Source: a virus. Taken from it: DNA of 64,000 nt. Shown here piece after piece: positions 1 to 62,128 of the stretch (position 1 is the stretch's first letter; every line of letters starts with the position of its first letter). The stretch is from UHGV virus genome UHGV-0279745; one strand, given 5' to 3'. The notes beneath the pieces are model-generated. The model was not told the origin of the DNA and did no database searches. It saw only the letters and a list, made by a program, of their open reading frames with translations. The position numbers and the translations under genes were made by a program.

Positions 1-180
1 TAGGTTATCTGTTGCACCAGATGTTTCATGTGTCTTTTCAGTTGCTGAAGAAACAGATTGCACCACAGTAGGGTTAGCAAAGTTGGTTTCAATTGGTATC
101 ACTTTTACCCGATCTGTACCACGGGGTTTGTCTTCCGCGACGATACCAATTGAGAAAAAATCAACACTGGATTTCTCCAT
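1..180 (-). CDS. hypothetical protein, 5' part only (continues past window start)
   Basis: ATG at 180..178 on minus strand with AAGGA about 9 nt upstream; 60 codons open to the window edge (MEKSSVDFFSIGIV...). Confidence 0.35.
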   Translation of the reverse strand, partial: MEKSSVDFFSIGIVAEDKPRGTDRVKVIPIETNFANPTVVQSVSSATEKTHETSGATDNL

Positions 181-210
181 CGGGACGTTCCTTAGATCGG
201 AATTGATTTC

Positions 211-231
211 AGATATATATTACTTAAGTGA
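211..231 (+). promoter_or_regulatory. candidate early-type phage promoter element, copy 1 (agatatatattacttaagtga)
   Basis: One of three near-identical AT-rich motifs in the window; followed by a 10-bp-stem hairpin at 234..260. Confidence 0.4.
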
Positions 232-313
232 ATAGGGGCTGAACTGGCACTTCAGCCCCTACGGACACGTTTCATTCGAAACGGATTGATTAAACCATTT
301 GGGGAGACAGATC

Positions 314-457
314 ATGTCTACTAAAAAGAAAGAAAGTCTCAATGAGCTGCTCAAACGGCTTAAAGACTACACTCCATTTAGTACCTGTTATCGGAAGGTA
401 CTAAAATTTTACAGTCTGCCCCTTTATTCTGCTACTCGGGATACCGGTAGGGGGTAG
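314..457 (+). CDS. small lysine-rich hypothetical protein (47 aa)
   Basis: ATG with GGAGA about 6 nt upstream; not in ORF track (under 60 aa); lies in the long leader downstream of promoter copy 1. Confidence 0.25.
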   Translation: MSTKKKESLNELLKRLKDYTPFSTCYRKVLKFYSLPLYSATRDTGRG

Positions 458-601
458 GGGGCATTATGTATACGGATATAAATAGCGGAGGTATACGTAG
501 TATACCGACATACTCTTCCCAGAGGAACGTAGTGACTTCCTTATACCTCTTTTACAATCCATAATAATAGACTCCCCTTTATTGAGATTAGCGAGTAAAT
601 C

Positions 602-1336
602 ATGAGAGAATTATTAGACGATATCTTTACTAACACCAATTTAGAACTTTCTTCTACGGTGGTTAATGAACTAATAGGGCAATCCCAACCTGCTAAGTTA
701 GTCTCTGCTGAAACAATTAAACCCGAAGATTATCCAGACAGTGACGTTATCGACAGCATGGTTGACGAATACACGATAAGCAGTCACGCCAACCGGTTCT
801 TCTTTGTTCTTAATACCGAAACCAGCGTCATTTTATTCTATAAATTGATCAGTGACGCCGAACTTGAAGTCGTAGCGGAACATGTTCGCCTCATTGCCAG
901 CACGCCTACCGTTTCCGATGTTACGTTTATTGGAGGAAGCAGTATGCTGACGCTATACTCTTACTTCCCACTGTTTAGACATGGGGTAGGGTTAATCAAG
1001 CATGTAGAAAACCTTCCCACTGATGTAGAATTAACGTTGCTCGGCCGGGACATCAGTCTTTATCCCTTAAAAGATAACGGTAAGTTATACGGTTTACGTA
1101 TCTATGTTTCTTGGTTAGAGGGATACCGCGTTATTGAACTGATTGCATCAGGCTTAACAAAACAAATCCCAGAGGCGGAAACGATTTCTAAAGCCACTCA
1201 CCTAGTTGAGATTAATCCAGACGATCCGTTTTTACAGTATCACACAGAAAATTCCCTTCGTGGTGTCGCTGCCGTAAAAGGGTGGAGTTGTGCTGAGATT
1301 ACGAAGGGCTATCTGCTGCTAATTAAAACCGCGTAA
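602..1336 (+). CDS. hypothetical protein, tandem paralog family A member 1
   Basis: ORF track; shares N-terminal LDDIF motif with 3166 ORF and the C-terminal GW..G..LL motif of the family. Confidence 0.6.
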   Translation: MRELLDDIFTNTNLELSSTVVNELIGQSQPAKLVSAETIKPEDYPDSDVIDSMVDEYTISSHANRFFFVLNTETSVILFYKLISDAELEVVAEHVRLIASTPTVSDVTFIGGSSMLTLYSYFPLFRHGVGLIKHVENLPTDVELTLLGRDISLYPLKDNGKLYGLRIYVSWLEGYRVIELIASGLTKQIPEAETISKATHLVEINPDDPFLQYHTENSLRGVAAVKGWSCAEITKGYLLLIKTA

Positions 1337-1362
1337 GTAAAAACCTAAAAGGAGAATATATC

Positions 1363-1917
1363 ATGTATCTGACTAAACTGAAAAATGAAATTATCCAATC
1401 CCTTGAAAAAGGTGTAGGTGAACATTTCTTTAACTGTCCCTATACCGTACTGACCAATACCATTATTCAGCCAGGTGCGATGATAGTAGGGGTGAGTGTA
1501 CAAGCTGTGGAGGAAACCCCGCTGCGTCGCAACATCACGCGTAAAACGCATATCCCATTTAGAACGGGCTTTACAGATTACCTTCAGAGCTTACTGAAAG
1601 ATAGCGTTTGGAAAACAGGCAGCTTCTTCCACGATGGGAAGACTTCCACGCTGGTTTATAAAGAGAACACCAAGTATCTGGTTGATTTTCTCTTAGCGCG
1701 TCAATACGATTTCTTTCCATCCCCTTCTGGCACCACCCCTGATAATCCAGGTAAGTTATTAAACCAAGACGAAGCCGAAGCACTCTTTACAAGACTTCGG
1801 AATGAGCACTGCGATGTTGATGACTGGGAAACGTTGATCGCTGTCGCCAAAGTACATGGTTGGTATACTGTACGTAAAATCGGTCAGCAGTTGTTGTTCT
1901 TAGCTTACCCTGCTTAA
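1363..1917 (+). CDS. hypothetical protein, paralog family A member 2
   Basis: ORF track; strong RBS (ctaaaaggag); C-terminal HGWYTVRKIGQQLLFLA motif. Confidence 0.65.
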   Translation: MYLTKLKNEIIQSLEKGVGEHFFNCPYTVLTNTIIQPGAMIVGVSVQAVEETPLRRNITRKTHIPFRTGFTDYLQSLLKDSVWKTGSFFHDGKTSTLVYKENTKYLVDFLLARQYDFFPSPSGTTPDNPGKLLNQDEAEALFTRLRNEHCDVDDWETLIAVAKVHGWYTVRKIGQQLLFLAYPA

Positions 1918-1946
1918 GTAACGAAAAACCCTAAAGGAGAGTAAAA

Positions 1947-3098
1947 ATGCGAAATATTATTTCTAAGCCAGGACATGCCAAGATCCTAAAAGAACTGATG
2001 GACAGATGCTATAATCGGACTTGGTCACTACCAAGCTTAACCATCGAGTCTTCATTACAACGTGAGTTGTTTGGTTATAACTTGGGCTGTTGTGTACTTA
2101 GTGAATACAACCAGGTTATCGCGCCTGTCGATGTCTGTACTTCCGATGAAGAAATTGAAGGTTACCAGTTCACAGCTTACACAAATTGTGGACTAAATTA
2201 CCGTAAACTCGTTGTTAGGGAAATGAGTAGCAACCGGAAGATTATGTTTAAGGTCTTCCCAAGTGGTAAAGTCAGTAATTTATGTTTTCAGCTTGAGAAA
2301 GTGCCCTTTCACGGTGCAGCCATTTTAACTAAACCAGAACTCCTGTTATTAAGCGGGTTAATTGGCTTTGAAGTAAAAACCATCAAAGTTGAGCAGGAAC
2401 TTACACGAAACGATTTCGGCTCAACTTGGTACGAAAGTTTCTTCCGCTACGAAATGTTAAGTGATAAAGCTATCAAACTCACTTACCGTTCTACCGACGA
2501 CATCGTTTACCACATTTTAATTAGCGGCGAACCCCACCAGATTATTGAAGTCGGAGGAGAAAAATCCGTGCGTACCTTAAAAGATGAATTAACTGATTTT
2601 GTTAACAAAATTGATAACGTGGGTATCAGTGAATTATTGTTCCCGATTCAACATCCAGAGCTGCTTGACGAGAAATCTGAAAACGTGGTTATGGGTGTGC
2701 ATTTACTTCCTGACCATCTTGCTATCTACCGTACACTTTCTAAGAATCAACTTAAAGTGTGGTGCCTGTTAAAAGACCTTTTAACAGAGGCGGGGTGGTC
2801 GTGTAGTGTAGATGTTAACTGTGAAGGAGTTGCGTTCTTCATCACAATAGGCAATCGTAGTTTTTCTGTCGATTTACCTACTCGCAGCTATTACAATTTC
2901 TTCCCGACCGCAGAAGGACGTACTGAAAAAGAACCCGCATTACTGCTCAGTGCTGAGGAGTCCAATGCGTTAATGGCGAAACTAAAGGCGAAAGACGAGA
3001 AGCTGGATGCTTTACATCTACCTATAATCGGGAAAGACTACGGTTGGGCTGACGTGCAAAAATACGGCAGTCAGCTGTTGTTTGTTGCTGACCTTTAA
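1947..3098 (+). CDS. hypothetical protein, paralog family A member 3
   Basis: ORF track; RBS ctaaaggag; C-terminal GWADVQKYGSQLLFVA motif. Confidence 0.65.
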   Translation: MRNIISKPGHAKILKELMDRCYNRTWSLPSLTIESSLQRELFGYNLGCCVLSEYNQVIAPVDVCTSDEEIEGYQFTAYTNCGLNYRKLVVREMSSNRKIMFKVFPSGKVSNLCFQLEKVPFHGAAILTKPELLLLSGLIGFEVKTIKVEQELTRNDFGSTWYESFFRYEMLSDKAIKLTYRSTDDIVYHILISGEPHQIIEVGGEKSVRTLKDELTDFVNKIDNVGISELLFPIQHPELLDEKSENVVMGVHLLPDHLAIYRTLSKNQLKVWCLLKDLLTEAGWSCSVDVNCEGVAFFITIGNRSFSVDLPTRSYYNFFPTAEGRTEKEPALLLSAEESNALMAKLKAKDEKLDALHLPIIGKDYGWADVQKYGSQLLFVADL

Positions 3099-3123
3099 TA
3101 AGTGAAACTACACTTTCTCTAAC

Positions 3124-3150
3124 TGCCGCGCTTTAGTCGCGGCTTTTGTT
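3124..3150 (+). terminator. putative intrinsic terminator
   Basis: gccgcg-loop-cgcggc hairpin followed by ttttgtt. Confidence 0.5.
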
Positions 3151-3165
3151 AAGAAGGAAATAGAA

Positions 3166-3939
3166 ATGAAAGTCCATTTAGACGACATCTTTAAAACCGA
3201 ACCGTATATGATCGAAGGTTCGCTAACATCACTACTATTTGCCGATAGATTAGATCGTACGCTGCAATTACAATCGGTCGAATCTGCACCCGTTGATGAT
3301 GTAGAGCGTTACGAGCGCATCAATCATACGCGGGGTGAGTATCGTCGCTATAAGCCAAATTCACTAAGCATCAAGCTCTGGCAAGTGAGCACAGGTAAAG
3401 TATTAACTTATCGCGCTGTCGGTAGTTATTACATTCAACAAGCCAAAGAATGGCTAGAGAAAGTTAAAGAACTGAACTTCGATCTACTGAGCAAAAAACT
3501 GCGCGATCATAACGCCAGTTTGCCGATACGTAATTATTTCTCCACGATTGAAAATAGTCGATGCTTCGTTTCACGTGAAACCACGATATTACCTGGGGCT
3601 GATGTTCAGACGACACTAAAAGATGTGGTTGTGAAGAAAATCTTTCATGAATCTGAACACGTTGGATTTCGTATCTATTTAACGCACAAGAGACCATTTA
3701 CCGTGATTCACGTTGTTACCGCACCCGAAGGCTCAGCGGTTATTCGAGAACTTCCTGATGCTCGAGACCGTTGCCCTAATGAGCCGCTTTATTTAATGTC
3801 AGGAACAAAATCAACCGCGTTGATGTCCCGTTACAGCATGTTAGATGTTGTTGACGCTGCTATGAAACTGGGTTGGAAAGAAGTGCAGCAACATGGTAAA
3901 CAATTGCTGTTTATTGCCGATGTAAAACTTAATCAATAG
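3166..3939 (+). CDS. hypothetical protein, paralog family A member 4
   Basis: ORF track; N-terminal LDDIF and C-terminal LGWKEVQQHGKQLLFIA motifs. Confidence 0.65.
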   Translation: MKVHLDDIFKTEPYMIEGSLTSLLFADRLDRTLQLQSVESAPVDDVERYERINHTRGEYRRYKPNSLSIKLWQVSTGKVLTYRAVGSYYIQQAKEWLEKVKELNFDLLSKKLRDHNASLPIRNYFSTIENSRCFVSRETTILPGADVQTTLKDVVVKKIFHESEHVGFRIYLTHKRPFTVIHVVTAPEGSAVIRELPDARDRCPNEPLYLMSGTKSTALMSRYSMLDVVDAAMKLGWKEVQQHGKQLLFIADVKLNQ

Positions 3940-3951
3940 TGAGGTGGTACC

Positions 3952-4530
3952 GTGTACCGATTAATAGAAATGCGAAAAGACGTTTGGTTGGAAAACCTCG
4001 TCGATGGGGAGCTTGAGGGAATAGAGCTTTCCTTACCAGAAAGAGCGGACACGGTATTGGTCTTTCTGATAAAACAGGCAGCGAAGGAACCGGTAGGAAT
4101 CTTCAGCGTGGACTATAAAGACCCACGAGGGATTCATTTACGGAACATTTGCAGTGGTTTGGAAAGCTTACCGGCTAATCCGTTCTTAAACTACGCAAAA
4201 CGTAAACTCCAGCCAGGGCAACATCTCTGGGTAGTTCTAGCGCCTGATACACGCATTATACGTGACGACCTGACTGCGTTTGTCCAAGCAACGAAAGTCA
4301 GTTTGTACAATCCTAATGCGGATCGTACCGATATGCCGTTTACAATCACCTTAGAAGACGATGGAACGCAAGAGGGTATTGAGGCAATTACGGAATTAGT
4401 AAACTCTTATCCGGTAGCGTCTATTGAGTTAGAAAACCCAAACCGATTACCGTTGGGTGATTTACTCGAATGGATTGAGCTGAATACCGAGTTCCTCATT
4501 AACTCCCGGCAGTACCGGTTCGATGTATAA
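3952..4530 (+). CDS. hypothetical protein
   Basis: ORF track; GTG start with GAGGTGG RBS. Confidence 0.55.
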   Translation: MYRLIEMRKDVWLENLVDGELEGIELSLPERADTVLVFLIKQAAKEPVGIFSVDYKDPRGIHLRNICSGLESLPANPFLNYAKRKLQPGQHLWVVLAPDTRIIRDDLTAFVQATKVSLYNPNADRTDMPFTITLEDDGTQEGIEAITELVNSYPVASIELENPNRLPLGDLLEWIELNTEFLINSRQYRFDV

Positions 4531-4570: not shown

Positions 4571-4592
4571 CGTTAATATTAAAAATAATTTC

Positions 4593-4614
4593 AGATATAT
4601 ATTACCTAGGTGAG
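4593..4614 (+). promoter_or_regulatory. candidate early-type phage promoter element, copy 2 (agatatatattacctaggtgag)
   Basis: Contains TATATTAC; lies between a terminator and the next gene; followed by a gtgagag/ctctcac hairpin (4610..4631). Confidence 0.45.
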
Positions 4615-4660
4615 AGTACAAAAGCTCTCACTTAATAAAACCATTTTAGGAGTATTAAAG

Positions 4661-7880: not shown

Positions 7881-8489
7881 ATGAACGAAATTACATTAGT
7901 TCGTTTTCTTGAAGCGATGCAAAATGCAGAGCGCTTTTCGCATACGCCTTTATTCATTGACTTAATGGAAGAAGAAGTAGAGGGATTCCTGGCATACCCT
8001 CGCTTACGGGAATATTTTAAACGTAAAACACCGACTGCTTACGAAAAGTTGGTTTACGCGCTTGAGAACAGTACAACATTGTTAACGTCACCTTTTAAGG
8101 CGTTGGAGGCTTTAGACCCGGCTGGTACCACAAGTATCCCACAACGTGTCGTGTTCTACTATATCGACCACGATCGAATCAAAGCCGATGTTGTTAACTG
8201 GATCTCTGAAAACGCAGTTCCTGAAACACGCACTTTTAATCTCTGTCCTGTAGAAGAAGGGTGGAAGGTCGGTAGCCACTATTCTTACCCGTACCAATCC
8301 ATTAAATCGCCGTTTTTATACCCGGTTTATCTGGATGACGTTACACCTGGAAATTGTATCCCGGTAACAAATCTGATCTGTACATTGACGATGGAAGTCT
8401 TAGCCACAAAGGCGGGACAGGTTTGGGTAGAAAACACGAAGAACGTCGATTATTGGACTTCAATGGGTTATCACCTGTACACCAAATAA
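7881..8489 (+). CDS. hypothetical protein
   Basis: ORF track; RBS aaaggaaaga. Confidence 0.65.
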   Translation: MNEITLVRFLEAMQNAERFSHTPLFIDLMEEEVEGFLAYPRLREYFKRKTPTAYEKLVYALENSTTLLTSPFKALEALDPAGTTSIPQRVVFYYIDHDRIKADVVNWISENAVPETRTFNLCPVEEGWKVGSHYSYPYQSIKSPFLYPVYLDDVTPGNCIPVTNLICTLTMEVLATKAGQVWVENTKNVDYWTSMGYHLYTK

Positions 8490-8492
8490 CGT

Positions 8493-8540
8493 TTGGGAGA
8501 ACCTTCGGGTTCTCCCTTTCTTTATTTTTTTTTCTTTTTA
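8493..8540 (+). terminator. intrinsic terminator
   Basis: gggagaacc-ttcg-ggttctccc hairpin plus long T-run. Confidence 0.7.
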
Positions 8541-8569
8541 CACCACACTCCGTCTTTATGGAGGTGGGT

Positions 8570-11074
8570 ATGCTAAAAGTTGAACGGATTATACTCAAAG
8601 GTTTTACGGGGATGGGATTACATGAAATTGAAACCTTCGATTTCACTATCCAGTCTCCGACAACAATTATCCTGGGTGGGAACGGCTGCGGGAAAACCAG
8701 TCTACTGTCTGTGTTCCTACCCTTAGCACCGGCTAAAACCGAATTCAGGGACGGCGGTTCTTACACAAACTACTGTTTAGTTGGCGATCAACGCTATCGT
8801 TTCAAAGTTGCCCGTAAAGGCAACTCTTTGGTTTGCGATATTGAGAACCTGACCACGGGGGCAAAGATCGTCGAGCAAGGTAATGCGAAAGTCTACAACT
8901 CCCGTGTTGAAGAAATCACAGGTATTACAAAAGAGATTAAAGAATTATTAAATGGTGAGGTGTTGTTAACCGATGCGGGAACCGAATTACGCCGCAAATG
9001 GTTTTACCGTTTAAGTACCTCTGATCTCACTTACGCGTTAGGGTTTTATCAACGTTTACGTAAAAACCTTACTGCCTTAAATGGGGGTATTGAAATCACC
9101 AGCCGTAAGATCGCCGAATTACGGACGCGTGTTATTGAGAACGAGGAAGAACGGCAGCAGTTAGCGACGAGATTAAAAGGTTTGGAATCGGATTTACGTG
9201 AACTGAACCGAGAAATCGAACAGTTACCAGGATTAAATCGTGCCGTCACCATCGAAACAATCCAAGCGTTATTAAACAGCTTGGGTCCAACCATCGACGC
9301 AATATTACAACATCGTGGTGGATTGCCTACTGATGAACAGATACTGGCCGCGCGACAAAACGAAGCGACGGCCCGCGAAGCCGTCGTGTCTACTGAAACA
9401 GAGGTATCGATGTTGAATAAAGACTTGTCGCTACTGATGGATGAGTCGACACGACAAGACTACCTGATGCGGAATCACGAAGGTCTCAAGAATACACTGG
9501 CACGTTTACGTGAGTTACTTACCAAATGGGACACCGAGCATCTCTTTCCGGGTTTATTTAACGACAACATCAATTTAGACCAACTTCGTGCGGCTACCGA
9601 CGCGCGTGTTTGGGGGCAACGGTTAGGAACAACACTGGACGCAATTCATTCAACCGAAAAACTTAATGTTTTGGAAGAACGGCTTCTGGTGATGGATCAA
9701 AAAACCGCAGGGTTGCGGGATAGACTCCAGCGAGTGGAGAACGTTTTACAGAATTTAAATCACGAACGTAATCACTACTTAGAAACAGCGGAAGTGGATT
9801 GCCCGCAGTGTCGGTTTAAGTTCCGTCCTGGCGTTACGCGTTCTTTACCTGAACTTGAGTCTTCGATTCGCGGACAACAACAGCAGCGCACGGAACTGCA
9901 AACGCAGTTAGAGACTCTATTACGCGATCGTGTTGAGTTAGAATCCGATGTAACTTATATGCGGCAGGTTCGTGAGATTGTACTGACGTATTCAAAGGAC
10001 CCGGTATTGAGCATGTTCTTTAAGCGTTTGCAAGAACGTAACGTTTTCACAGAATCACGTGAACAGTTCGGGAGTCTATGCGCAGCGTTTGACAGTGAGT
10101 TGTACTCTGCTATTGAGTACCATGAAACCCGTCAACGGTTAGTGAAGGCGGAAAAAGAATGGCAGGATGCCGTGGCGGCCGTTGGTAACGTCGATGGTGC
10201 TTTACAACAGAAAATTGCTTTCCAACAGTCACGATTAGGTAAAGCCACAGAGATGCTCTCAATGCGTCGTAGAGAGTACGAACTGGCTAACACGACACTT
10301 ACCTATCTGGTGAATGTTAAACGTGCTGTAGATGATTTCAGTGCGTTATTCGAACGGTTAGAGAGTGATGTTAAGGTTACGTTGACAAATACGGTCGTCG
10401 AGGAACTCTTACGTGCACGAGAAGGGAAGCTGGATGCTTTTACAACCGCACGCGAACGTTATCGTCAGATGGAAAATGAATTGAATCAGCTCAACAGTTT
10501 GGAACGCGAACTTGCTGACTTACAAGCCCAGCAATTCAATAACAAACTGATGATTCAAGCCTTCTCTCCAGAAAAGGGTGTACTTAGAAAGTATTTTTAC
10601 AACGCTATCGTTAGAATCACAGAGTTAATGACGCGTTATATCGAACAGGTCTGGACGTACCCCATGCGCGTTATGCCTTGTGACCTCACTGACGGCGATT
10701 TGGATTATACTTTTCCTGTCCAGCTAAAAACGCATCCTGAGCCTGTTCCTGACGTGCGTAAAGGGTCTAAGGCGCAGCGTGCGATATTTAATCTGATGTT
10801 CAGGCTGACTGCGTACAAAGCGCTGAAGTTGCATCAGTTTCCGTTGCTTTTGGATGAGCCTTCGGAAGGCATGGATGAGGAGCACCGTAACAACCTGGTC
10901 GGTTTTATTAAAACGTTAGCAAACTCGGGAGAATTTTCCCAACTGTTGGTAGTCTCCCACGAAGCCGAGGTTCATTCTAAACTTAATGAAGCATCGTACT
11001 GTGTCATCGAACCGGAAGGGGTGACATTGCCTGCGGTGTATAACGAAGGAGTAAAAATTGTTTATGCAAACTGA
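8570..11074 (+). CDS. SbcC/Rad50-like recombination ATPase
   Basis: Start moved to ATG 8570 (RBS GGAGGTGGG, downstream of terminator); Walker A GGNGCGKTS, long coiled-coil middle, CPQC zinc hook, C-terminal LLDEPSEGMD. Confidence 0.7.
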   Translation: MLKVERIILKGFTGMGLHEIETFDFTIQSPTTIILGGNGCGKTSLLSVFLPLAPAKTEFRDGGSYTNYCLVGDQRYRFKVARKGNSLVCDIENLTTGAKIVEQGNAKVYNSRVEEITGITKEIKELLNGEVLLTDAGTELRRKWFYRLSTSDLTYALGFYQRLRKNLTALNGGIEITSRKIAELRTRVIENEEERQQLATRLKGLESDLRELNREIEQLPGLNRAVTIETIQALLNSLGPTIDAILQHRGGLPTDEQILAARQNEATAREAVVSTETEVSMLNKDLSLLMDESTRQDYLMRNHEGLKNTLARLRELLTKWDTEHLFPGLFNDNINLDQLRAATDARVWGQRLGTTLDAIHSTEKLNVLEERLLVMDQKTAGLRDRLQRVENVLQNLNHERNHYLETAEVDCPQCRFKFRPGVTRSLPELESSIRGQQQQRTELQTQLETLLRDRVELESDVTYMRQVREIVLTYSKDPVLSMFFKRLQERNVFTESREQFGSLCAAFDSELYSAIEYHETRQRLVKAEKEWQDAVAAVGNVDGALQQKIAFQQSRLGKATEMLSMRRREYELANTTLTYLVNVKRAVDDFSALFERLESDVKVTLTNTVVEELLRAREGKLDAFTTARERYRQMENELNQLNSLERELADLQAQQFNNKLMIQAFSPEKGVLRKYFYNAIVRITELMTRYIEQVWTYPMRVMPCDLTDGDLDYTFPVQLKTHPEPVPDVRKGSKAQRAIFNLMFRLTAYKALKLHQFPLLLDEPSEGMDEEHRNNLVGFIKTLANSGEFSQLLVVSHEAEVHSKLNEASYCVIEPEGVTLPAVYNEGVKIVYAN

Positions 11075-14540: not shown

Positions 14541-14544
14541 TCCC

Positions 14545-14586
14545 TACCCCTTACCCTATACGGTGTAAGGGGTACTTTTATTTTCA
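14545..14586 (+). terminator. intrinsic terminator
   Basis: ccccttac/gtaagggg hairpin plus T-run. Confidence 0.6.
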
Positions 14587-15140: not shown

Positions 15141-16076
15141 ATGACTTTTCCATCTGAAGTAATTCACGAACTGGCTAACACGCTACGTCGTTACCATAGC
15201 AGCAAGACGATGCAAACCAATGTGGGTGCGACCGCCGACTTTTTACGTGGTTATTTCCTGGGCAGAAATCCAACGTCGATTACACAGGAAACGGTTTTCT
15301 CTATCGAACGTACCTCCTTAATCCTTCCAATTGATAATTTCACTGCGTTTCAAGAAAGGAATACGTTCAACTTCTCTATGGGAATGCTGTATTCGACCAT
15401 CGCCATTAATCCCATCATGAGAGATGACCCATCTTTCGTGCCTTACCAACATACAACGGATCACGGTAATTGGTTCGTTGTGGTAGAACAAGGTGCGAAT
15501 CAGTATGATGTTGTTGCAGCTCGTGACGAAGCTTTCTTTGATTTAGGGCAGATTTATCGCCGTCAAGAAATTGCGTTTGACCTACGTCAAGGTAATATCG
15601 GATTAAGTGGGTCTGCTGTCTATTTCATCCTGAGTAGTTGGTCACATGTAGGTTTTGTGCTGATGAAAAAAGGACCGTTGTTCAACTCACCGTTGGTAAA
15701 ATACCATAACCCTGAGGAAGGAGATCATGACGAAGAAGAAACGGTACCTAGCACAGAAGTCGCCGTTTGTGAAAACTACGATGATCTGAAATCTGTACTC
15801 GTTAAGCGTGATGTTTTCGAATCGTTAAACCTGGATTTCCCCGGTGACGAAAATGAAATATCCGTAGCTGACCTGGTAGAAGCGTTGTGTCAGAAAGACC
15901 AAGCTAACGAAATTAGCGACGAAGAAGCAGAACTCTTCCAAGTTCAACAACTCGTCAGCAAGGTTATCGGTGGACAGGGAATCGTTGACACTCTTATGGC
16001 TCTACCGCCGAAGAAACGAACTCAGAAGTATATTCGTGAGCTGGTTCTTGAAAACCTGGGTCAAACCAAAAAGTAA
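15141..16076 (+). CDS. hypothetical protein
   Basis: ORF track; RBS aaaagaggac. Confidence 0.65.
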   Translation: MTFPSEVIHELANTLRRYHSSKTMQTNVGATADFLRGYFLGRNPTSITQETVFSIERTSLILPIDNFTAFQERNTFNFSMGMLYSTIAINPIMRDDPSFVPYQHTTDHGNWFVVVEQGANQYDVVAARDEAFFDLGQIYRRQEIAFDLRQGNIGLSGSAVYFILSSWSHVGFVLMKKGPLFNSPLVKYHNPEEGDHDEEETVPSTEVAVCENYDDLKSVLVKRDVFESLNLDFPGDENEISVADLVEALCQKDQANEISDEEAELFQVQQLVSKVIGGQGIVDTLMALPPKKRTQKYIRELVLENLGQTKK

Positions 16077-52832: not shown

Positions 52833-55800
52833 ATGCTGCTCATTAAACAGTTTAACCAACGCTTCTCGGTGCGTAAAACTGACGAGTTTGGTAATCCGAG
52901 GATTATCCCGCTCGAGAAGCTACAGATACCACGTGGTTCTGTACTCCATGTCATTGATCTCGACCAGGTGGTATTAGCGCCACCTGCAACACTCGAGATT
53001 ATTCAACCGTTAGAAAAACCTGCACAGGTTCGTCACCACTTTAAATTACCGGAAGACGGTATTAGCGGTCATCCGCGCAACAAACCTGTTCAGGGGCAAG
53101 AACGTGCTATCTTTGCTTACCACCGTGCAAACCGCCCGATGCGTCGTCTTACCTCAGACGATCTGGTTCGCAAAGACTTAAAAGTTCTCCTGGTCGAGAA
53201 CTACACACCGATGCTATCGCACTACTACTATCCTGACACCCAGTTAGCCTGGTACGATAGACTGCGTAACATCCAACTGTTGATGATTAACCAGTTCAAA
53301 TACGACACGCAAGAATACATGCGTCAGAACTATTTCGTTATTGAACTGGGTTCGACTCTACCTTCGTTCCAGAAGTTTCAAACAACCTATAACGACCGCG
53401 TTAAGAGCAAGATTGAGAAGTTCCAGGACTTCAACTTGCTGTGGTTATTGGAGTTGTTTGCTTGGGCTTATGGAAAACAATCCGATTCCCTATTCTCGGG
53501 AATGGATTTAACTCAGCTGTCACGAATGAACTTTATCTTCACCCACAACACGGGCTTTACGTCCATGAACATGGGTGTTGTAGAGAAAATGCGTAAGTCG
53601 TCCGGCGGTCGTTTAAGTGATGACCAAATGGCCAGGATGTTCTACCGTACGCTGGTGCGTGTAATGACACAAGCACCGTCTAACGCGTACGAAGCTGAAT
53701 TCCTAACGCCTGAAGGCGACGAGCGTGTTTTCCTTAAAGACGTCGAAGAAGAAACCGTTGATGTTGTCGACGATGACGATGTTGTTAATGACGCTGTGGT
53801 GGAATCCGATAACACCTTCGATGAAAAAGAAGACGTTGTTATTGAAGAACCGAAGGAAGACGTCAAACCGACGACCATCGTCGTCGAGAAAGTCATTCCA
53901 CATGACGAGATTATTAAACAGGAAGCACAACGCTTAGCTGAAGCGGGCCGCTTAAGTTCTAAAGCATATCAGTTCCTGTCAGAATCGTCTAAACGTTTCG
54001 TTCAGCTACCTAACCCGTATAACCCGAAAGAAACCTACGGGGAAGCACTGACTGTTCACGAGAAAGATATTGTCGTTAAAGCCGAACCGAAAAAAGTTCA
54101 GCGGCTTGTTACCGATGAAGGGTGGGCAGAGAACGTCACCGACCAGATGGTGAAACAATACAACCAGACCATGATGACCAAAGACGTACTGGCGGCGGTC
54201 GCCAGTTCACAACGTTTGGGTCTGGCGGTTCACAACCACACGGTGGAAAAAGAAGTTTCTGTTACAGGAACTATCGAGCACCACACTTTACGTGTTCAGC
54301 CAGTCGGTGGTGAGCCAACAACCGTTCGCTTCTCTATCCCAGGCTTGACCGAGGACGGTACTTGGGTCGCTAATGGTGTCGAATACACCATGCGTCGCCA
54401 ACGTGTGGACTTACCGATTCGTAAAGTTGCACCGGATACTGTCGCACTGACTACCGCTTACGGTAAAAACTTTGTCCGTCGTAGTGATAAGGTCGCGAAC
54501 GATTACGGTCGTTGGTTAACCAACGCGATTATCACACGCGCTGTTGACCCAACAAACACCGAAGTCACCGATGCACGTTTAGCAAATGTGTTCGATCCTA
54601 CGCAACATCTGCCTCGTCAGTATACGGAGATTGCACGCCGTATTGCCAGCTTTAATGCGAACGGCTATATGTGGAACTTCGACTACAAAGAAGCCGTTAA
54701 CTTCTTTAACGACGAGCAACTCAGAGACGCCGATGCTGCCAAACTTCTGCCAGTGGCGAAACGTCCGCGTAGTGAAACAATCCTGGCAATGGATGACAAA
54801 TCCATGCTTTACGGTGTGAACGGAAACAAAGTTGAACCGGTGGGGACTATCGCAGAGGTACTGGGCTTTAATAACCAGAAAGTGCCTCGCGAAATGACCG
54901 AGCTGTCTTTGATGGGTAAATCTTTGTCGCTTGGTTTTATCTTCTCGTTCTATCTTGGACTCCAGGGAATGTTGAAACATTTCGGTATCCAGTACGAGTT
55001 GGTTCCTACAGGACAGCGTGTTGATAAGAATGCCTACGACAGTATTATTCGACTACAAGACTGTAAACTTTTAGTTACTTGCGATAACGATCAGCAGAGG
55101 ATGATTCTGCATGGTTTGGATCGCTATCTCAAACACCTGGTTGCTTATACCGAATCAGAAGCAGACCGCGAAGACATTTACCTGAACTTATTACGTGAAG
55201 CAGATGGCCTAACGCCACGGTACATCAACGAGCTGAAACAGATGCGGTCCGCGTTTGTTGACGACATGCACGCACGTATCCTCAGGAAAATGGGTGAGCC
55301 GGAAACCTTTATTGGCTTGCTGGAACGTTCTAACGAACTGTTACAAACCGACCACTCTTTACCAGAGATTAACGGCGATGAAATGATGTTCTTAGGAAAT
55401 CAGAGGATTGCCTACCACATCTATACTGCGATGGTCAGAGCGATGCGTAACTACAATAACGCACCGGGCAGTAACCGTAAGTTCGAACTGACGCAAGATA
55501 TGGTTTGGGGTGCTATTAACTCCGACCCGTCGGTACTTTTGGCACCAGGCGCTAACCCTATCCAGTCAATTAAAGAAAAAGACGTTATTACGATGGGGGG
55601 TACAGGTGGTCGTAATCGTAAAACGATGGTCTACCACACACGTGAGTTCCAACCCAGTGATATCGGGATAGTCTCGGGTAACACCGTAGATAACGGCGAC
55701 GTAGGGATTACTGCTTTCGTCACCAATAACCCACGTTTTGACACCGTTGACGGTACTACGTTTAAGCGTGAAGAGAAAACCCCGAAACCGAGCGATACCC

Positions 55801-56999
55801 TTTCGTTTATTGACGGGTTAGTACCCGATACGTTAATGGACGATGCAAAACGTCAAAACTTCGTTGGGATTCAGTTAGGTTCTGCCACCAGTTGTAATGG
55901 GGCAACCACAACCCCGTATCGTACTGAACAGGAGAAATTCGTCGCTCACCGTACTTCGGTGAAACATGCACGCGTTATTGATAAAGCAGGTAAGATTACT
56001 GGTCTGTCGAAAGACCACATTGAAATTACGTACGAAGATGGAAGTAAAGAAGCCTTTCCTCTAGGGCGCTGGTTCGGCCCCCACGAAGGTACCTTCTATC
56101 CGCACACCTTGGTAACACGCTGGAAAGCCGGTGACAAGCTCCCGGCCGGAGCAGTGATTACGTACAACGAGCAACACTTTGAACCTGATATTTACGATCC
56201 TACTCAGGTTTCCTGGAAAAACGGGGTGCTGGCCACCGTTGCTTTATTAGAAGCTGAAGAAGTTATCGAAGACTCCAACGCAATTTCTGAACGGTTCGCG
56301 AAGAAAATGGTGGGGCAGGTAACAAAGCTGAAAGAAGTGACGATTAACAGCAACCAGATGCTTTTGGAAATCGTGAATGAGGGCGACCACGTAGACGTCG
56401 ATACAATCCTATGCACGTTTACTGACGACTTGACGGGCGATATGAGTGCCTTTAGTCAGGAAGCAGCCGCAACGTTGCAAAGTTTAAGTTCGTACGCACC
56501 TCGTGCAGGGGTACGTGGTATCGTGGATAAAATCGAAGTGGTGTATCACGGTGAAACCGAAGACATGACACCAAGCCTTGCTGAACTGGTGCGTAAATAC
56601 GACAGAATTCGTCGTAAAGCCGCACTGGCAGTCGGACGTGGTGATCCGGTTTCAGGCAGTGTAAACGGCGACTACCGTGTCGAAGGTGTACCCTTGGCCT
56701 TTAACTCACTTTGTGTTCGATTCTTTATTACACACGACGTTGAGATGGCCGCTGCGGATAAGATGGTTATTGCTAACCAGCTAAAAACCACCGTACAAGA
56801 AGTCATGTACGGCGACAACAAAACAGAGGATGGCGATGACCTGGACGTGTTGTTCGGTCGCGATTCCGTCGATGCGCGTATCGTAGGTTCAATCCAACGT
56901 ATCGGTACCGCGAATGCTGTAGGTGAACAAGCCGGGATTCTCATCGGGCGTATACTCGATGGGGAGGCTGTGCCTGATTTACCCGCGACACTTAAATAA
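52833..56999 (+). CDS. large hypothetical protein (1388 aa), possibly a further RNAP subunit or virion protein
   Basis: ORF track; immediately downstream of the beta-prime-like gene; no motif recognised with confidence. Confidence 0.7.
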   Translation: MLLIKQFNQRFSVRKTDEFGNPRIIPLEKLQIPRGSVLHVIDLDQVVLAPPATLEIIQPLEKPAQVRHHFKLPEDGISGHPRNKPVQGQERAIFAYHRANRPMRRLTSDDLVRKDLKVLLVENYTPMLSHYYYPDTQLAWYDRLRNIQLLMINQFKYDTQEYMRQNYFVIELGSTLPSFQKFQTTYNDRVKSKIEKFQDFNLLWLLELFAWAYGKQSDSLFSGMDLTQLSRMNFIFTHNTGFTSMNMGVVEKMRKSSGGRLSDDQMARMFYRTLVRVMTQAPSNAYEAEFLTPEGDERVFLKDVEEETVDVVDDDDVVNDAVVESDNTFDEKEDVVIEEPKEDVKPTTIVVEKVIPHDEIIKQEAQRLAEAGRLSSKAYQFLSESSKRFVQLPNPYNPKETYGEALTVHEKDIVVKAEPKKVQRLVTDEGWAENVTDQMVKQYNQTMMTKDVLAAVASSQRLGLAVHNHTVEKEVSVTGTIEHHTLRVQPVGGEPTTVRFSIPGLTEDGTWVANGVEYTMRRQRVDLPIRKVAPDTVALTTAYGKNFVRRSDKVANDYGRWLTNAIITRAVDPTNTEVTDARLANVFDPTQHLPRQYTEIARRIASFNANGYMWNFDYKEAVNFFNDEQLRDADAAKLLPVAKRPRSETILAMDDKSMLYGVNGNKVEPVGTIAEVLGFNNQKVPREMTELSLMGKSLSLGFIFSFYLGLQGMLKHFGIQYELVPTGQRVDKNAYDSIIRLQDCKLLVTCDNDQQRMILHGLDRYLKHLVAYTESEADREDIYLNLLREADGLTPRYINELKQMRSAFVDDMHARILRKMGEPETFIGLLERSNELLQTDHSLPEINGDEMMFLGNQRIAYHIYTAMVRAMRNYNNAPGSNRKFELTQDMVWGAINSDPSVLLAPGANPIQSIKEKDVITMGGTGGRNRKTMVYHTREFQPSDIGIVSGNTVDNGDVGITAFVTNNPRFDTVDGTTFKREEKTPKPSDTLSFIDGLVPDTLMDDAKRQNFVGIQLGSATSCNGATTTPYRTEQEKFVAHRTSVKHARVIDKAGKITGLSKDHIEITYEDGSKEAFPLGRWFGPHEGTFYPHTLVTRWKAGDKLPAGAVITYNEQHFEPDIYDPTQVSWKNGVLATVALLEAEEVIEDSNAISERFAKKMVGQVTKLKEVTINSNQMLLEIVNEGDHVDVDTILCTFTDDLTGDMSAFSQEAAATLQSLSSYAPRAGVRGIVDKIEVVYHGETEDMTPSLAELVRKYDRIRRKAALAVGRGDPVSGSVNGDYRVEGVPLAFNSLCVRFFITHDVEMAAADKMVIANQLKTTVQEVMYGDNKTEDGDDLDVLFGRDSVDARIVGSIQRIGTANAVGEQAGILIGRILDGEAVPDLPATLK

Positions 57000-62036: not shown

Positions 62037-62055
62037 CCCTATTGAAAATTATCTT

Positions 62056-62077
62056 AGATATATTTTACTTAGGTGAG
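62056..62077 (+). promoter_or_regulatory. candidate early-type phage promoter element, copy 3 (agatatattttacttaggtgag)
   Basis: Same motif and same terminator-promoter-gene arrangement as copy 2. Confidence 0.4.
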
Positions 62078-62128
62078 CGTTGTAGAATTACACGCTATTC
62101 GACTGTTTAACCTAAAGGAGTATTAAGA

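Follow-up and report, generated by a model that had tools for sequence, protein, structure and literature searches.

A candidate structured non-coding RNA beside the baseplate-assembly gene of SPN3US/phiEaH2-like jumbo phages

Introduction

The window analysed here, 64,000 nucleotides of the virus genome UHGV-0279745, belongs to a nucleus-forming, SPN3US/phiEaH2-like jumbo phage (Chimalliviridae). The gap between its leftward baseplate-assembly gene and the first paralog gene, which the first-pass annotation had called unusually long, measures 421 bp when read directly (181-601). That annotation pointed out a G-rich tandem repeat, an inverted repeat and an additional GTATAC hexamer in the gap, and offered them as operator or protein-binding sites or as parts of a small RNA. 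The locus raises the question of whether these repeats have any significance and, if they have, whether they act as double-stranded DNA, as single-stranded DNA or as RNA.

Results

The repeats could be read in the window. The tandem repeat, annotated as gtaggggg at 447..463, is real, although its position was off by a base: TAGGGGG occurs twice at 448-461 with a period of 7. The GTATAC hexamer at 468-473 and the perfect 7-bp inverted repeat (GGTATAC at 490-496, gta at 497-499, GTATACC at 500-506) are exactly as described. Within the window, the exact 17-mer GGTATAC-gta-GTATACC occurs once, G5-N3-G5 with at most one mismatch is found at this site only, and GGARCGNAGYGACNTCCTT, the pattern of the second mini-hairpin, has no other match. 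Seven perfect 7-bp repeats spaced by 3 nt are present in the window versus 3.8 in shuffles (maximum 7), and GTATAC occurs 15 times versus 13.3 expected, with 3 of the 15 copies within 38 bp at the element. Neither GGA-hairpin-GAC in the window (34 versus 29 in shuffles) nor CGGAG-hairpin-CCTTTAT in SPN3US (5 matches versus 11 expected) was enriched. Taken alone, the G-rich repeat and the inverted repeat are accurate observations but not beyond chance; their significance comes from conservation and covariation in relatives, and not from the window sequence alone.

The two repeats are pieces of one single-copy element of about 130 bases (Table 1). The conserved unit extends from about 409 to about 548, a third of which had been seen before. 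A covariance-model search returned one match in the window (102 bits, E=2e-21) and exactly one in the whole 240-kb SPN3US genome, and the element occupies one place per record in 35 SPN3US-type phage records. Conservation in related phages, which the first-pass annotation had proposed as a check, is very strong: homologues occupy the syntenic position in 29 genomes or contigs, which fall into seven groups (the window clade, Seoulvirus, Erskinevirus, Machinavirus, Wellingtonvirus, Derbicusvirus and CR5). RAY, PhiPA3, PCH45 and the phiKZ-like SL2 lack the element, and their equivalent site is only 64-162 bp long. Across the window clade, identity is 95-99% over 398-545 versus 53-87% for the adjacent paralog coding sequence; in the element core it reaches about 98-100%, with flanking coding DNA again at 53-87%. 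This identity is near-total, loops included, and exceeds the needs of a simple scaffold RNA. Two features are invariant throughout: G5-N2-4-G5 and the frame CGGAG...CGAC(A)UCCUU. In the window clade, 220-320 bp have been inserted between the element and the baseplate gene, and the element is unchanged.

Table 1. Features of the gap between the baseplate-assembly gene and the first paralog gene (positions in the window)
Feature	Position	Strand	Remarks
Leftward baseplate-assembly gene	ATG 180-178	-	Left border of the 181-601 gap
Early-promoter-like motif TCAGATATATATTACTTAAG	209..228	+	3 copies in window (209, 4591, 62054) vs 0 expected
10-bp hairpin AGGGGCTGAA/TTCAGCCCCT	234..260	+	Directly 3' of early promoter; read from sequence
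Decayed small ORF	314..457	+	Outside element; stop codon TAG between the two G-runs
5' edge of conserved block, TACTAAAATTTTACAG	398..413	+	Degenerate counterpart of the T5-6AC(G/A) preceding the element in all other lineages (alignments)
Whole conserved element	409..548	+	Covariance-model match 409-528; second mini-hairpin and pyrimidine-rich tail extend to ~548
5' pyrimidine-rich tract CCCCTTTATTCTG	419..431	+	Pyrimidine-rich in most lineages
Hairpin P2	432..450	+	CTAC-t-CGG / GATA loop / CCG-GTAG; predicted folds
Invariant core G5-TA-G5 (G-rich direct repeat)	450..461	+	Unique in window
Weak AU-rich hairpin P3	464..481	+	TTATGT / ACATAA-like arms; contains GTATAC 468-473; -1.1 kcal/mol in window
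Hairpin P4	486..509	+	Stem 490-496/500-506, loop GTA 497-499; invariant frame C-G-GA ... GA-C around inverted repeat
Second mini-hairpin copy and pyrimidine-rich tail TTCCTTATACC	522..548	+	G-GA-AC-GUA-GU-GA-C (524-536), then tail; motif recurs in relatives
T-rich-AC signal TTTTACAA	550..557	+	Relatives carry T4-6A(A)C(A/G) after element
First paralog gene	ATG 602		Right border of the 181-601 gap

In every relative examined the element is a neighbour of the leftward baseplate-assembly gene, just upstream of it; the gene downstream varies among lineages but the element itself does not. It is unannotated in all records examined, including RefSeq SPN3US, phiEaH2, Asesino and NZ_CP173450.1. The last of these is the sole E. 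coli match and, although filed as a clinical-isolate 'plasmid', is really an SPN3US/phiEaH2-like phage genome of the window clade (E. coli 98232); there was no chromosomal match in E. coli, and host mimicry was rejected. In SPN3US and Erskinevirus a 105-aa gene comes next after the element; a tie to it was rejected because the window lacks this gene. DNA searches of annotated phages with 1-3000 and 150-1400 found no homologue of the element, since its conserved pieces are too short for BLAST; the early-promoter motif was the only part of 150-1400 with a match (in CR5, PCH45 and SPAsTU). L015 and 8 of the 12 IMG/VR matches to the 17-mer were due to chance. Against Rfam 15, window positions 1-3000 gave only a chance snoTBR5 match at E up to 10 (743-785, 14.5 bits versus a gathering threshold of 44), and the loci of eleven relatives gave only a U6atac match at E up to 1, elsewhere in L029. 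A search of the literature other than a catalogue of more than 10,000 viral RNA motifs (PMC10690425) found no description of the element and no transcriptome data for its clade. No tRNA or tmRNA was found, and tblastn of the first paralog protein against annotated phages found nothing.

The inverted repeat is the stem of hairpin P4. P4 is a perfect hairpin in 28 of 28 sequences with 8 stem variants, and a ninth variant occurs in Wellington (stem-anchored table); the stems are GGTATAC, GGTATCC, GGTACCC, GGTACTC, GGTAGCG, GGTGAC, GGAG, GUCU and GC. In the alignment 92.7-93.8% of the P4 cells are paired versus 33-50% in register-shifted controls, and 5 of the 8 pairs show a double compensatory change. 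The observed values of cells paired, both-side changes and covariation score were reached by none of 500 shuffles, and the counts of pairs and of pair types by 91 and 53 of 500, respectively. Some members of the clade have GGA in place of GTA in the loop, on an unbroken stem. Pairing is thus kept across lineages while the sequence changes, as selection on a folded single strand would have it, and this fits the small-RNA option of the first-pass annotation. Around the stem, G488·A508 and A489·G507 may form a tandem G·A internal loop that G487-C509 closes. With two nucleotides on either side (2x2), this GA/GA loop is symmetric, and a bulge is absent in every lineage; an L7Ae-type kink-turn, which needs a three-nucleotide bulge beside the tandem G·A, was rejected. 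In CR5-like phages P4 exists solely as the mini-hairpin motif (GGAGCGTAGCGAC); in L027, L029, L054 and L056 the motif is nested inside P4, and the change there from AC/GU to AU/AU is compensatory.

The other parts of the element vary in different ways. At P2 a hairpin is found in every lineage but its stem differs each time (GG-GAAA-CC, GAGG-GAAA-CUUC, UGAAG-GGAA-CUUCA, CGU-GAGA-ACG and UGC-GAAA-GCA are examples), and the loop is GNRA or GNRA-like in at least 8 lineages. The column alignment of P2 is poor (62.5% of cells paired), and covariation of P2 and P3 is seen lineage by lineage. Every one of the 29 elements examined has two G-runs in its core, each of 4 G or more and mostly of 5-6, with a spacer of 2-4 nt (UA, AUA, UAA, AAA, ACC or AGA). 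At P3, other lineages have unrelated, stronger hairpins (GAUCUGUG/CAUAGAUC, UAUGU/ACAUA, CCCU/AGGG), and Erskinevirus and CR5-like phages have no hairpin at this position. MFE and duplex predictions showed the G-runs wobble-paired to the 5' pyrimidine tract (P1); P1 is not claimed, because the spacer-complement test was not significant (12 matches versus 8 expected) and L032 lacks the pyrimidine tract.

Stems of 2 to 7 pairs among lineages and a P3 that is present or absent are typical of RNA families, and G·U to A-U transitions occur in the stems (L054 versus L056). In each of the 15 lineages compared, the fold of the + strand is more stable than that of the - strand by 6-25 kcal/mol. Folding z-scores are modest: most lineages lie between -0.5 and -4, and CR5-like phages near 0. 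RNAalifold on a plain MAFFT alignment recovered only the base of P4 (4 pairs), and because this was insufficient the structure was read lineage by lineage and through the covariance model. Each element has 3-7 GGA, several of them in P2/P3 loops (ACGGAU, UUGGAUG, GAGGAUU, GCGGAUC); loop GGA is missing from some lineages and the counts are mildly above composition, by an estimate only. Many GGA motifs in hairpin loops characterise small RNAs that titrate CsrA/RsmA. GNRA loops, GNA triloops and tandem G·A are stable in single-stranded DNA also, and for this reason structural signatures alone do not separate RNA from single-stranded DNA.

Transcription signals surround the element. Early promoters of jumbo phages are AT-rich motifs centred near -10 (PMC7598289). 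In the window clade the 209..228 motif, upstream of the element, would place the element in an early leader. The stem at 234..260 covaries in relatives (GGGACTGAA.., GGAGCTGAA.., GGGGTTGAA..), hairpins also follow the other two copies of the motif, and in the early transcript this one would be the 5' hairpin. In SPN3US, 10 of the 18 matches to T5AC(R) lie outside ORFs, a fraction that amounts to 6% of the genome (p=1.6e-8), and T5-6AC(R) is + strand intergenic punctuation in this phage and may act as a promoter. The intergenic signal follows a terminator hairpin in 6 of 10 cases, and a spacer of 6-10 nt is common. The T5-6AC(G/A) copy 5' of the element has decayed precisely in the clade that gained the upstream early promoter. 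In several lineages the element is upstream of the early promoter, not downstream of it, and in the sister sub-clade the RBS of the next gene directly follows the element and the U-run is absent. A scan of 1-1500 found no rho-independent terminator, and the U-rich run starts 7-8 nt after the P4 stem; a canonical intrinsic terminator would have its U-tract within 0-2 nt of a G+C-rich stem, and the 3' end of the element is not of this kind. A putative GGA/UCC helix that closes the hairpin differently would abut the U-tract. The T-rich-AC signal at 550-557 may mark where a terminator-like tail ends, or it may serve the following gene as a promoter. The middle promoter of phiKZ consists of TACT about 22 nt upstream of the start and an A-rich run (PMC8244752). 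TACTAAAA is present at 398-405 and CATACTA in other lineages; TACT with an A-run gained little support as a promoter here: TACT-A4 is not enriched in the window (9 versus 6) and otherwise lies inside genes.

Discussion

Our data indicate that the element is probably a new structured RNA that serves as a small RNA or as a module of a leader. Positions 409-548 would encode a structured non-coding RNA of about 110-140 nt on the + strand, once per genome. From 5' to 3' it would consist of the pyrimidine-rich tract, P2 (often GNRA-capped), the G5-N2-4-G5 core, the optional P3, P4 and a U-rich tail, UCCUU(U)AUUC. The G-GA...GA-C frame of P4 would form the tandem G·A internal loop, usually with a C-GNA-G triloop on top. 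In most lineages the phage's own T5-6AC(G/A) signal precedes the module and a terminator-like hairpin with a U-rich tail follows it, and with its own 5' signal and terminator-like 3' end a free-standing small RNA is probable there. In the window clade an early promoter, a 5' hairpin and a mini-ORF appear to have been inserted upstream, so that the module would lie in a long early-operon leader, from which it may be processed out.

What such an RNA might do is suggested by its invariant parts. The unpaired purine tracts (GGGGG, GGGGG, GGAGG, AGGA) and the G·A frame are most likely a docking surface for protein or RNA, which the variable stems would only hold in shape. We tentatively propose a new jumbo-phage RNA family, which would act either as an RNP or decoy on a host or phage factor or as a transcript that seeds a replication-priming R-loop; this goes beyond what we would call likely. 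The invariant G5-N-G5 and the G·A-framed hairpins would form the RNP or decoy, with one gene per genome. Its target might be the translation apparatus, for example, because the element displays three or four Shine-Dalgarno-like purine tracts.

Small and leader RNAs of phage provide partial parallels. The pyrimidine boxes of the CUUUAUUC type beside short GNRA/GAAAN hairpins in the nut sites (boxA-boxB) of lambda and rrn and in HK022 put resemble parts of the element, which likewise heads a long early operon in the window and by analogy would act as RNA. However, its box only loosely resembles boxA (GCUCUUUA), it is present in a single copy per genome, and it is upstream of the early promoter in several lineages. 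In phages of this kind transcription is carried out by phage-encoded multisubunit RNA polymerases that are for the most part shielded from host factors (PMC7598289, PMC13282480). Non-coding RNAs have been reported for phiKZ (PMC8244752, PMC13282480). Like the phiKZ small and leader RNAs, the element is a short non-coding intergenic hairpin unit of Chimalliviridae oriented with neighbouring genes, but it has no sequence or Rfam relationship to them, and its status as an RNA is putative.

The main alternative to a structured RNA is a DNA element that acts through single-stranded or unwound DNA, such as an origin, a site of R-loop priming or packaging, or another cis site. In an origin or R-loop priming site the G-rich non-template strand would lie downstream of a promoter, and the + strand, once displaced, would fold into stable hairpins. 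We consider this alternative unlikely, but several observations fit it. The element is strictly single copy, it keeps a fixed place at a major transcription divergence beside the late baseplate promoter whichever gene follows, and its ultra-conservation includes the loops. Non-template G clusters, GNA triloops, GNRA loops and tandem G·A suit DNA mini-hairpins and R-loop origins, and such features occur in ColE1 RNA II, mitochondrial CSB II and T4 oriF/oriG. Promoter-proximal non-template G clusters at a unique site, such as the G-run of ColE1 RNA II, are a shared trait, but these origins lack the covarying multi-hairpin architecture of the element. In SPN3US, where the element lies at 161.44-161.57 kb, a local minimum of cumulative GC skew is found at about 161 kb; the change of gene orientation accounts for it in full, and a genome-wide origin signal is absent. 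GC skew mirrors only gene orientation in this genome, is uninformative on initiation, and was rejected as an origin test. Other observations also speak against DNA: the stems contain internal G·T, RNA tolerates their G·U to A-U transitions better, punctuation signals for transcription in the + direction lie on both flanks, and the insertion toward the baseplate gene left the element unchanged. Hairpin promoters of the N4 type, with a 5-7 bp stem and a 3-nt purine-centred loop in single-stranded template DNA, resemble the 7-bp stem and 3-nt loop closed by C-G in the window and the GGA loop of its clade variant. In the window, however, the loop centre is T, and other lineages have loops of 4-11 nt or a 2-bp stem. 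An N4-type promoter was rejected, since the window encodes multisubunit RNAP beta-like genes and no N4-like single-subunit virion enzyme, and the element is single copy whereas N4-type hairpin promoters occur at several early genes.

It is improbable that the element is transcription punctuation only, that is, an elaborate terminator or insulator with promoter signals that separates the late baseplate promoter from the early block and has no stable-RNA function. Its 3' hairpin, AUCC and U-rich tail ending in AC(R) do resemble the ordinary rho-independent terminators of the same genomes (GGGTAAGAGGG-ATTTCC-TTTTTTACG in SPN3US; 14541-14585 in the window), and T5-6AC(R) is found on both sides. 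Ordinary terminators, however, are not conserved to this degree and lack the G5-N-G5 and G-GA/GA-C frame, and the element instead has a conserved spacer of 7-8 nt (CGACAUCC) from stem to U-run. CGGAG-hairpin-CCTTTAT and GGA-hairpin-GAC are not repeated genomic signals. The 5' two-thirds (P2, G-runs and P3) have no counterpart in these terminators and no terminator role, and there is no + strand gene to terminate because the upstream gene is on the other strand.

A double-stranded DNA operator, in which the GGTATAC/GTATACC palindrome and the additional GTATAC would be the target of a phage or host protein that regulates the divergent promoters, is very unlikely. The palindrome is perfect and three GTATAC lie within 38 bp in a divergent promoter region, but a sequence-specific operator would conserve its half-sites. 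Here the half-sites vary among lineages, with nine stem sequences, and outside the window clade it is the pairing and not the palindrome that is conserved. The third GTATAC, at 468-473, belongs to the separate, weak and clade-specific P3 hairpin and is absent elsewhere. The invariant flanks, GGA...GAC, are non-complementary, and hence the conserved unit is not a DNA palindrome; the stem is reduced to 2 bp in CR5-like phages, and the window has no further copies.

Protein coding is the least credible reading. The ORFs do exist (314-457 on the + strand, which has a GGAG RBS; 32-codon ORFs at 466-564 (+) and 464-562 (-); and a minus-strand ORF from the ATG in rc(CCGACAT)), the first ~19 codons of 314-457 are conserved at the protein level in the sister sub-clade (MSTEKKSGLDEVIELFKRYNPAIPR and MFAEQKDGIEEVVRLFRHYSPYLPR, each followed by a stop), and ATG-TCG-G on the minus strand is common to all lineages. 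However, an intact mini-ORF stops short of the element; among the closest relatives the mini-ORF has been deleted in L013/L022, L037 and L040, it is frame-shifted in L002/L033 and L038, and in the sister sub-clade it has 25 codons and ends about 70 nt earlier. The minus-strand ORFs extend 15-38 codons beyond the ATG that they share and also differ in sequence; the stems covary and codons are not kept, which accounts for both. Nucleotide-level conservation reaches beyond every ORF, no PHROG matched, PGAP annotates nothing here in NZ_CP173450.1, and no conserved reading frame was found on either strand across relatives. Coding capacity or a lack of conservation had been named by the first-pass annotation as evidence against its proposal; the region is non-coding and strongly conserved.

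Nucleus-forming jumbo phages are intensively studied, while their non-coding RNAs, origins and middle promoter and terminator signals are barely known. If the element is an RNA family, it spans at least seven groups of Enterobacterales-infecting Chimalliviridae, and if the R-loop reading is true, it would be the first candidate origin for nucleus-forming phages. The element is a concrete, testable target in culturable phages for distinguishing a dedicated structured RNA from a unique cis-acting DNA site.

Genomic setting

The leftward gene that borders the gap encodes a baseplate assembly protein, its first 60 residues matching the phage family phrog_3216 (E=8e-15). A 1388-aa protein is a jumbo-phage multisubunit RNA polymerase beta-like subunit (phrog_3148). 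Its best annotated relatives, at 82% aa identity, come from Erwinia phages Stratton, phiEaH2 and Asesino; those of Salmonella phages SPAsTU and SPN3US come next at 76-80%, and all are of the nucleus-forming Chimalliviridae group (PMC13282480). No near-identical phage was found in the annotated phage collection; among metagenomic contigs, with lengths of 150-230 kb, identity is 78-94%. NZ_CP173450.1, a circular 221,873-bp RefSeq record named 'plasmid p98232-contig_4' from human urine E. coli strain 98232, is a jumbo phage of the window clade; its gene order is unchanged and its copy of the element is 95.8% identical. The record points to E. coli as host for a clade otherwise known from metagenomes only.

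Five early genes lie in a row rightward of the gap. Four share the C-terminal motif ..GW..V.K.G.QLLF.A.. and weak PHROG matches (phrog_26772, 33648, 24489) cover the C-terminus only; the fifth matches phrog_20879. The first of these paralogs had no tblastn match among annotated phages.

Positions of the features in the window, and in SPN3US where stated
Feature	Position	Strand	Remark
Baseplate gene, ATG	180-178	leftward	
Gap	181-601		
Early-promoter-like motif TCAGATATATATTACTTAAG	209-228; 4591-4610; 62054-62073	+	0 expected by chance
Hairpins after the motif	234-260; about 4612-4634; about 62078-62098	+	second GTGAGAG..CTCTCAC; third AGCGT..ACGCT
Mini-ORF	314-457	+	ATG 314; good ribosome-binding site
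T5-6AC(G/A)	407; 550; 7314; 8535; 15088	+	
Element	409-548	+	
P2	432-450		hairpin
TAGGGGG TAGGGGG	448-461		G-runs 450-461
P3	464-481	+	includes extra GTATAC (468-473); weak, -1.1 kcal/mol
P4	486-509		GGTATAC-gta-GTATACC at 490-506
AGTATG	512-509	-	
Minimal form, second copy	524-536		
First paralog gene, start	602	rightward	
Five early genes	602-4530	+	
SMC-like gene	8354-11074		
Terminator	14541-14585	+	after gene ending 14540
RNA polymerase beta-like subunit	52833-56999		
SPN3US, TAGTATGA	229230; 161432; 158710; 64406	-; -; -; +	
SPN3US, covariance model match	161,440-161,560		98.5 bits
SPN3US, partial look-alike	15,473-15,545	+	

A near-invariant block in the long gap

The first-pass annotation had singled out a G-rich direct repeat, a GTATAC hexamer and an inverted repeat in this gap as candidate operator sites or parts of a small RNA. 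All three are present, and each taken alone is statistically unremarkable: perfect 7-bp repeats with a 3-nt spacer number 7 in the window versus 3.8 in shuffles, and GTATAC 15 versus 13.3 expected. A promoter and terminator scan gave nothing within the range of these repeats, and a tRNA search of the window found none. Rfam returned no family match to the element in window 1-3000 or in eleven relatives' loci, by which a known RNA family was ruled out.

The conservation in related phages that the annotation had proposed as a check was borne out, as a near-invariant block in the clade with homologs outside it. In the gap alignment, core 420-545 is almost invariant: the five genomes first aligned vary at position 464 only, and the four variable positions among all clade members are 419, 454, 464 and the P4 loop. 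Identity is 95-99% over 398-545, only 29-90% over 263-397, 82-99% in the baseplate coding sequence and 53-87% in the adjoining paralog coding sequence. The first four relatives were found by an exact 17-mer, which biases that 17-mer and not the other ~130 nt; relatives found via proteins (loci L013, L022-25, L033, L037-44) have the same near-invariant core.

Upstream of the block the clade carries a putative early promoter, a 5' hairpin and a mini-ORF. The motif TCAGATATATATTACTTAAG, in pattern form TCAGATATAT[AT]TTAC[CT]TA[AG]G, is the sole part of the gap region that matches annotated phages, and fits the AT-rich early-promoter motifs reported for jumbo phages (PMC7598289). A hairpin follows each of its three copies within about 10 nt, an arrangement that looks like a standard 5' hairpin design of early transcripts. 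The mini-ORF is intact in the sister sub-clade (L023-L025, L044 and L060, which is NZ_CP173450.1), with 25 codons conserved at protein level (MSTEKKSGLDEVIELFKRYNPAIPR, MFAEQKDGIEEVVRLFRHYSPYLPR) and a stop about 20 nt upstream of the conserved block. In the window's sub-clade it is frame-shifted (L002/L033, L038) or deleted (L013/L022, L037, L040), and in the window itself it has lost its own stop and reads through to TAG at 455-457. The overlap of this ORF with the G-runs is thus an accident of its decay; the first-pass annotation had named coding by an extension of this ORF as a refuting outcome, which the comparison does not bear out.

Distribution outside the clade

The region upstream of the baseplate gene was also read in phiEaH2, Asesino, SPAsTU and SPN3US, in 16 IMG/VR loci, 13 metagenome loci and 8 more annotated Erwinia phages. 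A common architecture was found at the syntenic site. Its invariant pieces are T5-6AC(G/A) at the 5' edge, then G4-6, a 2-4 nt spacer and G5-6, then (A/G)CGGAG, and a 3' box CGAC(A/C/U)(U/C)CC(U/A), usually CGACAUCCUU, with a U-rich tail in most lineages. Two boxes end differently, the first copy of the window clade in CAUAC and that of SPAsTU in CAUCCA. Three hairpins between these pieces are variable.

A covariance model built from 13 representatives (118 positions) has exactly one match in the window (409-528, 102 bits) and exactly one in the complete SPN3US genome. Each relative with a baseplate protein at least 46% identical also has one match (Wellington 44.6 bits, EarlPhillipIV 66.6 bits). 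BLAST with the SPN3US version hits 35 phage records at one place each; the site is unannotated in most and carries hypothetical proteins in a few SPFM records. The model gave no match in the remote baseplate relatives L034, L046 and L047 (27-30% identical; IMG/VR/metagenome contigs) and L035 (26%), nor in L045, an intermediate relative with 56% identity over part of the protein, in which a T-rich signal leads straight into an early promoter.

No match was obtained either in RAY, PhiPA3, the phiKZ-like SL2 or PCH45, where only 64-162 bp separate the baseplate gene from an SbcC-like gene. In these four (L063-L066) the two genes are directly divergent; in the window and SPN3US an 8-kb early-gene block, headed by the element, separates the baseplate gene from the SMC-like gene. 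Since the block is absent in these outgroups, the element marks the edge of a clade-specific insertion.

What follows the element differs between lineages, which rules out a link to one downstream gene. SPN3US, Erskinevirus and SPAsTU have a 105-aa ORF there, CR5 and L029 an early promoter, and Machinavirus other genes. The window has a paralog-family gene at this place and lacks the 105-aa gene altogether.

Covariation and strand asymmetry of the hairpins

P4 contains the inverted repeat. When stems were located by anchoring on the invariant GGA and GAC and pairing inward, an uninterrupted stem was found in 28/28 sequences, in eight variants, to which Wellington adds a ninth.

Stems and loops of P4 by lineage
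Lineage	Stem	Loop
Window clade	GGTATAC	GTA or GGA
SPN3US	GGTATCC	GTA
pEa_SNUABM_29	GGTACCC	GGA
SPAsTU	GGTACTC	TACA
Machinavirus L026, L057-59	GGTAGCG (one G·U)	TCCC
Erskinevirus	GGTGAC	AACG
L027, L029, L054, L056	GGAG	nested mini-hairpin
CR5-like	GC	GTA
Wellington	GUCU/AGAC	9 nt

On model-based alignments 92.7-93.8% of cells are paired, with double compensatory changes in 5/8 pairs; these alignments are fitted to the structure and inflate such counts, a bias of which the stem-anchored table is free. Sliding the 3' partner by 1-3 columns lowers pairing to 31-50%. Pairing, the number of cells changed on both sides and the covariation score all lie above the values of every one of 500 shuffles; the counts of pairs and pair types are unexceptional (26-91 and 41-53 of 500 shuffles). 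The dinucleotides that flank the stem, GA...GA, are invariant and non-complementary. They are interpreted as an internal loop of tandem sheared G·A pairs, with an invariant G-C pair closing it. The minimal form G-GA-NN-GNA-NN-GA-C is the entire P4 in CR5-like phages, recurs as a second copy in the window and Erskinevirus, and is nested within P4 in L027, L029, L054 and L056, where AC/GU versus AU/AU is a further compensatory change.

P2 lies directly 5' of the G-runs in every lineage, with lineage-specific stems: CUAC.CGG/CCG.GUAG in the window, and elsewhere GG/CC, GAGG/CUUC, UGAAG/CUUCA, CGU/ACG, UGC/GCA, AGG/CCU and UGUGUCU/AGA.CACA. Its loop is GNRA or GAAAN in at least 8 lineages. Column-wise only 62.5% is paired because the register of P2 shifts, and the hairpin is supported by lineage-by-lineage reading, not by a statistic. 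P3, between the G-runs and CGGAG, is unrelated in sequence between lineages and absent in Erskinevirus and CR5-like phages. Pairing of the G-runs with the 5' pyrimidine tract is possible.

In 15/15 lineages tested the plus strand has the more stable fold of the two strands, by 6-25 kcal/mol; plus-strand z-scores are mostly -0.5 to -4.2 and about 0 in CR5-like phages. Elsewhere in the window, an ordinary terminator consists of a hairpin ACCCCTTAC..GTAAGGGGT and then CTTTTATTTTC; its left arm CCCTACCCCTTAC could pair with about 15 nt of the G-rich core of the element, two of the pairs being G·U, which is no more than chance would give.

Putative transcription signals flanking the element

Read on the minus strand, TCATACTA beside the baseplate gene is TAGTATGA. 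In SPN3US this octamer precedes four genes by 30-50 nt, those of the tail sheath, the baseplate and one virion protein, and gp201; it agrees with the phiKZ late promoters, TATG(+1) (PMC7598289). It is likely a late-promoter motif; it belongs to the baseplate gene and is the left boundary of the element. The window copy is mutated (GGTACTA), and a clade-specific C-to-A change within the element (CCGACATAC) makes AGTATG on the minus strand, so the baseplate late transcript may start inside the element, antisense to it.

ORFs of at least 90 aa leave 6% of the SPN3US genome free. Of 18 plus-strand T5AC(G/A) matches in this genome, 10 fall in that share (p=1.6e-8), and of 5 on the minus strand none does. 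Six of the 10 intergenic copies come after a terminator hairpin with a pyrimidine spacer of 6-10 nt, and the remaining copies are isolated, about 45-55 nt upstream of a start codon. These positions indicate genuine transcription punctuation, as terminator tail, promoter or both. Every lineage has one copy immediately 5' of the element, without a preceding hairpin, and a second T-rich-AC follows the element's hairpin and pyrimidine tail. In the window clade the 5' signal has decayed to TTTTACAG, ATTTACAG or AATTACAT, which coincides exactly with the clade that has inserted the upstream early promoter, 5' hairpin and mini-ORF. These signals are circumstantial evidence for rightward transcription of the element. 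Its own T5-6AC(G/A) signal would serve for this in most phages, and in the window clade the early promoter would, the element then being part of a long leader.

A partial look-alike of the 3' module occurs in SPN3US within the 5' end of gp245, a gene of opposite orientation, as T6ACG, 22 nt, AGCGGAGG, a 5-bp hairpin GGGTC/GACCC and CTTTAT. It escapes the covariance model and may have arisen by chance.

Nature of the element

The element is under strong purifying selection, single-copy, strand-asymmetric and hairpin-rich, and shows bona fide covariation. We lean towards a functional plus-strand RNA, which would be a small RNA of its own or a module carried in a leader. Recognition would then fall to the invariant purine tracts and the G·A frame, with the stems as scaffolds. 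Candidate partners or targets are the translation apparatus, RNA-binding host proteins and the phage RNA polymerase; the first is suggested by several Shine-Dalgarno-like tracts and UCCUU anti-SD-like boxes.

The main rival is a unique cis-acting site that works through unwound DNA, as an origin, R-loop site or pac site. DNA hairpins, too, are stabilised by GNA triloops, GNRA loops and tandem G·A, and members of the clade keep their loops more strictly identical than a scaffold RNA would need; we consider this reading possible, though unlikely. That the element, set among punctuation signals, is itself purely a terminator or insulator is improbable. The operator proposed in the first-pass annotation would be a double-stranded DNA site, which is very improbable where sequence varies, pairing is kept and the invariant flanks are non-palindromic; the small-RNA option of the same annotation fits the covarying hairpin. 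Protein coding is hardly credible, as minus-strand ORFs from the shared ATG in the reverse complement of CCGACAT vary in length and sequence and the mini-ORF is decayed or deleted in the window's sub-clade.

Searches of the window and SPN3US for further copies of the element's motifs ruled out a repeated regulatory site. An N4-type promoter is contradicted by the multisubunit RNA polymerase genes and the single copy, a K-turn by a symmetric GA/GA loop lacking a bulge, and a canonical terminator by a U-rich run that starts 7-8 nt beyond the P4 stem. No description of the element was found in Rfam 15 or the searchable literature, a scope that leaves aside one large viral RNA motif catalogue, and the public records examined leave it unannotated in most cases and annotate it as RNA in none. 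Judged by sequence and predicted folding, the element may represent a new candidate family of phage structured RNA.
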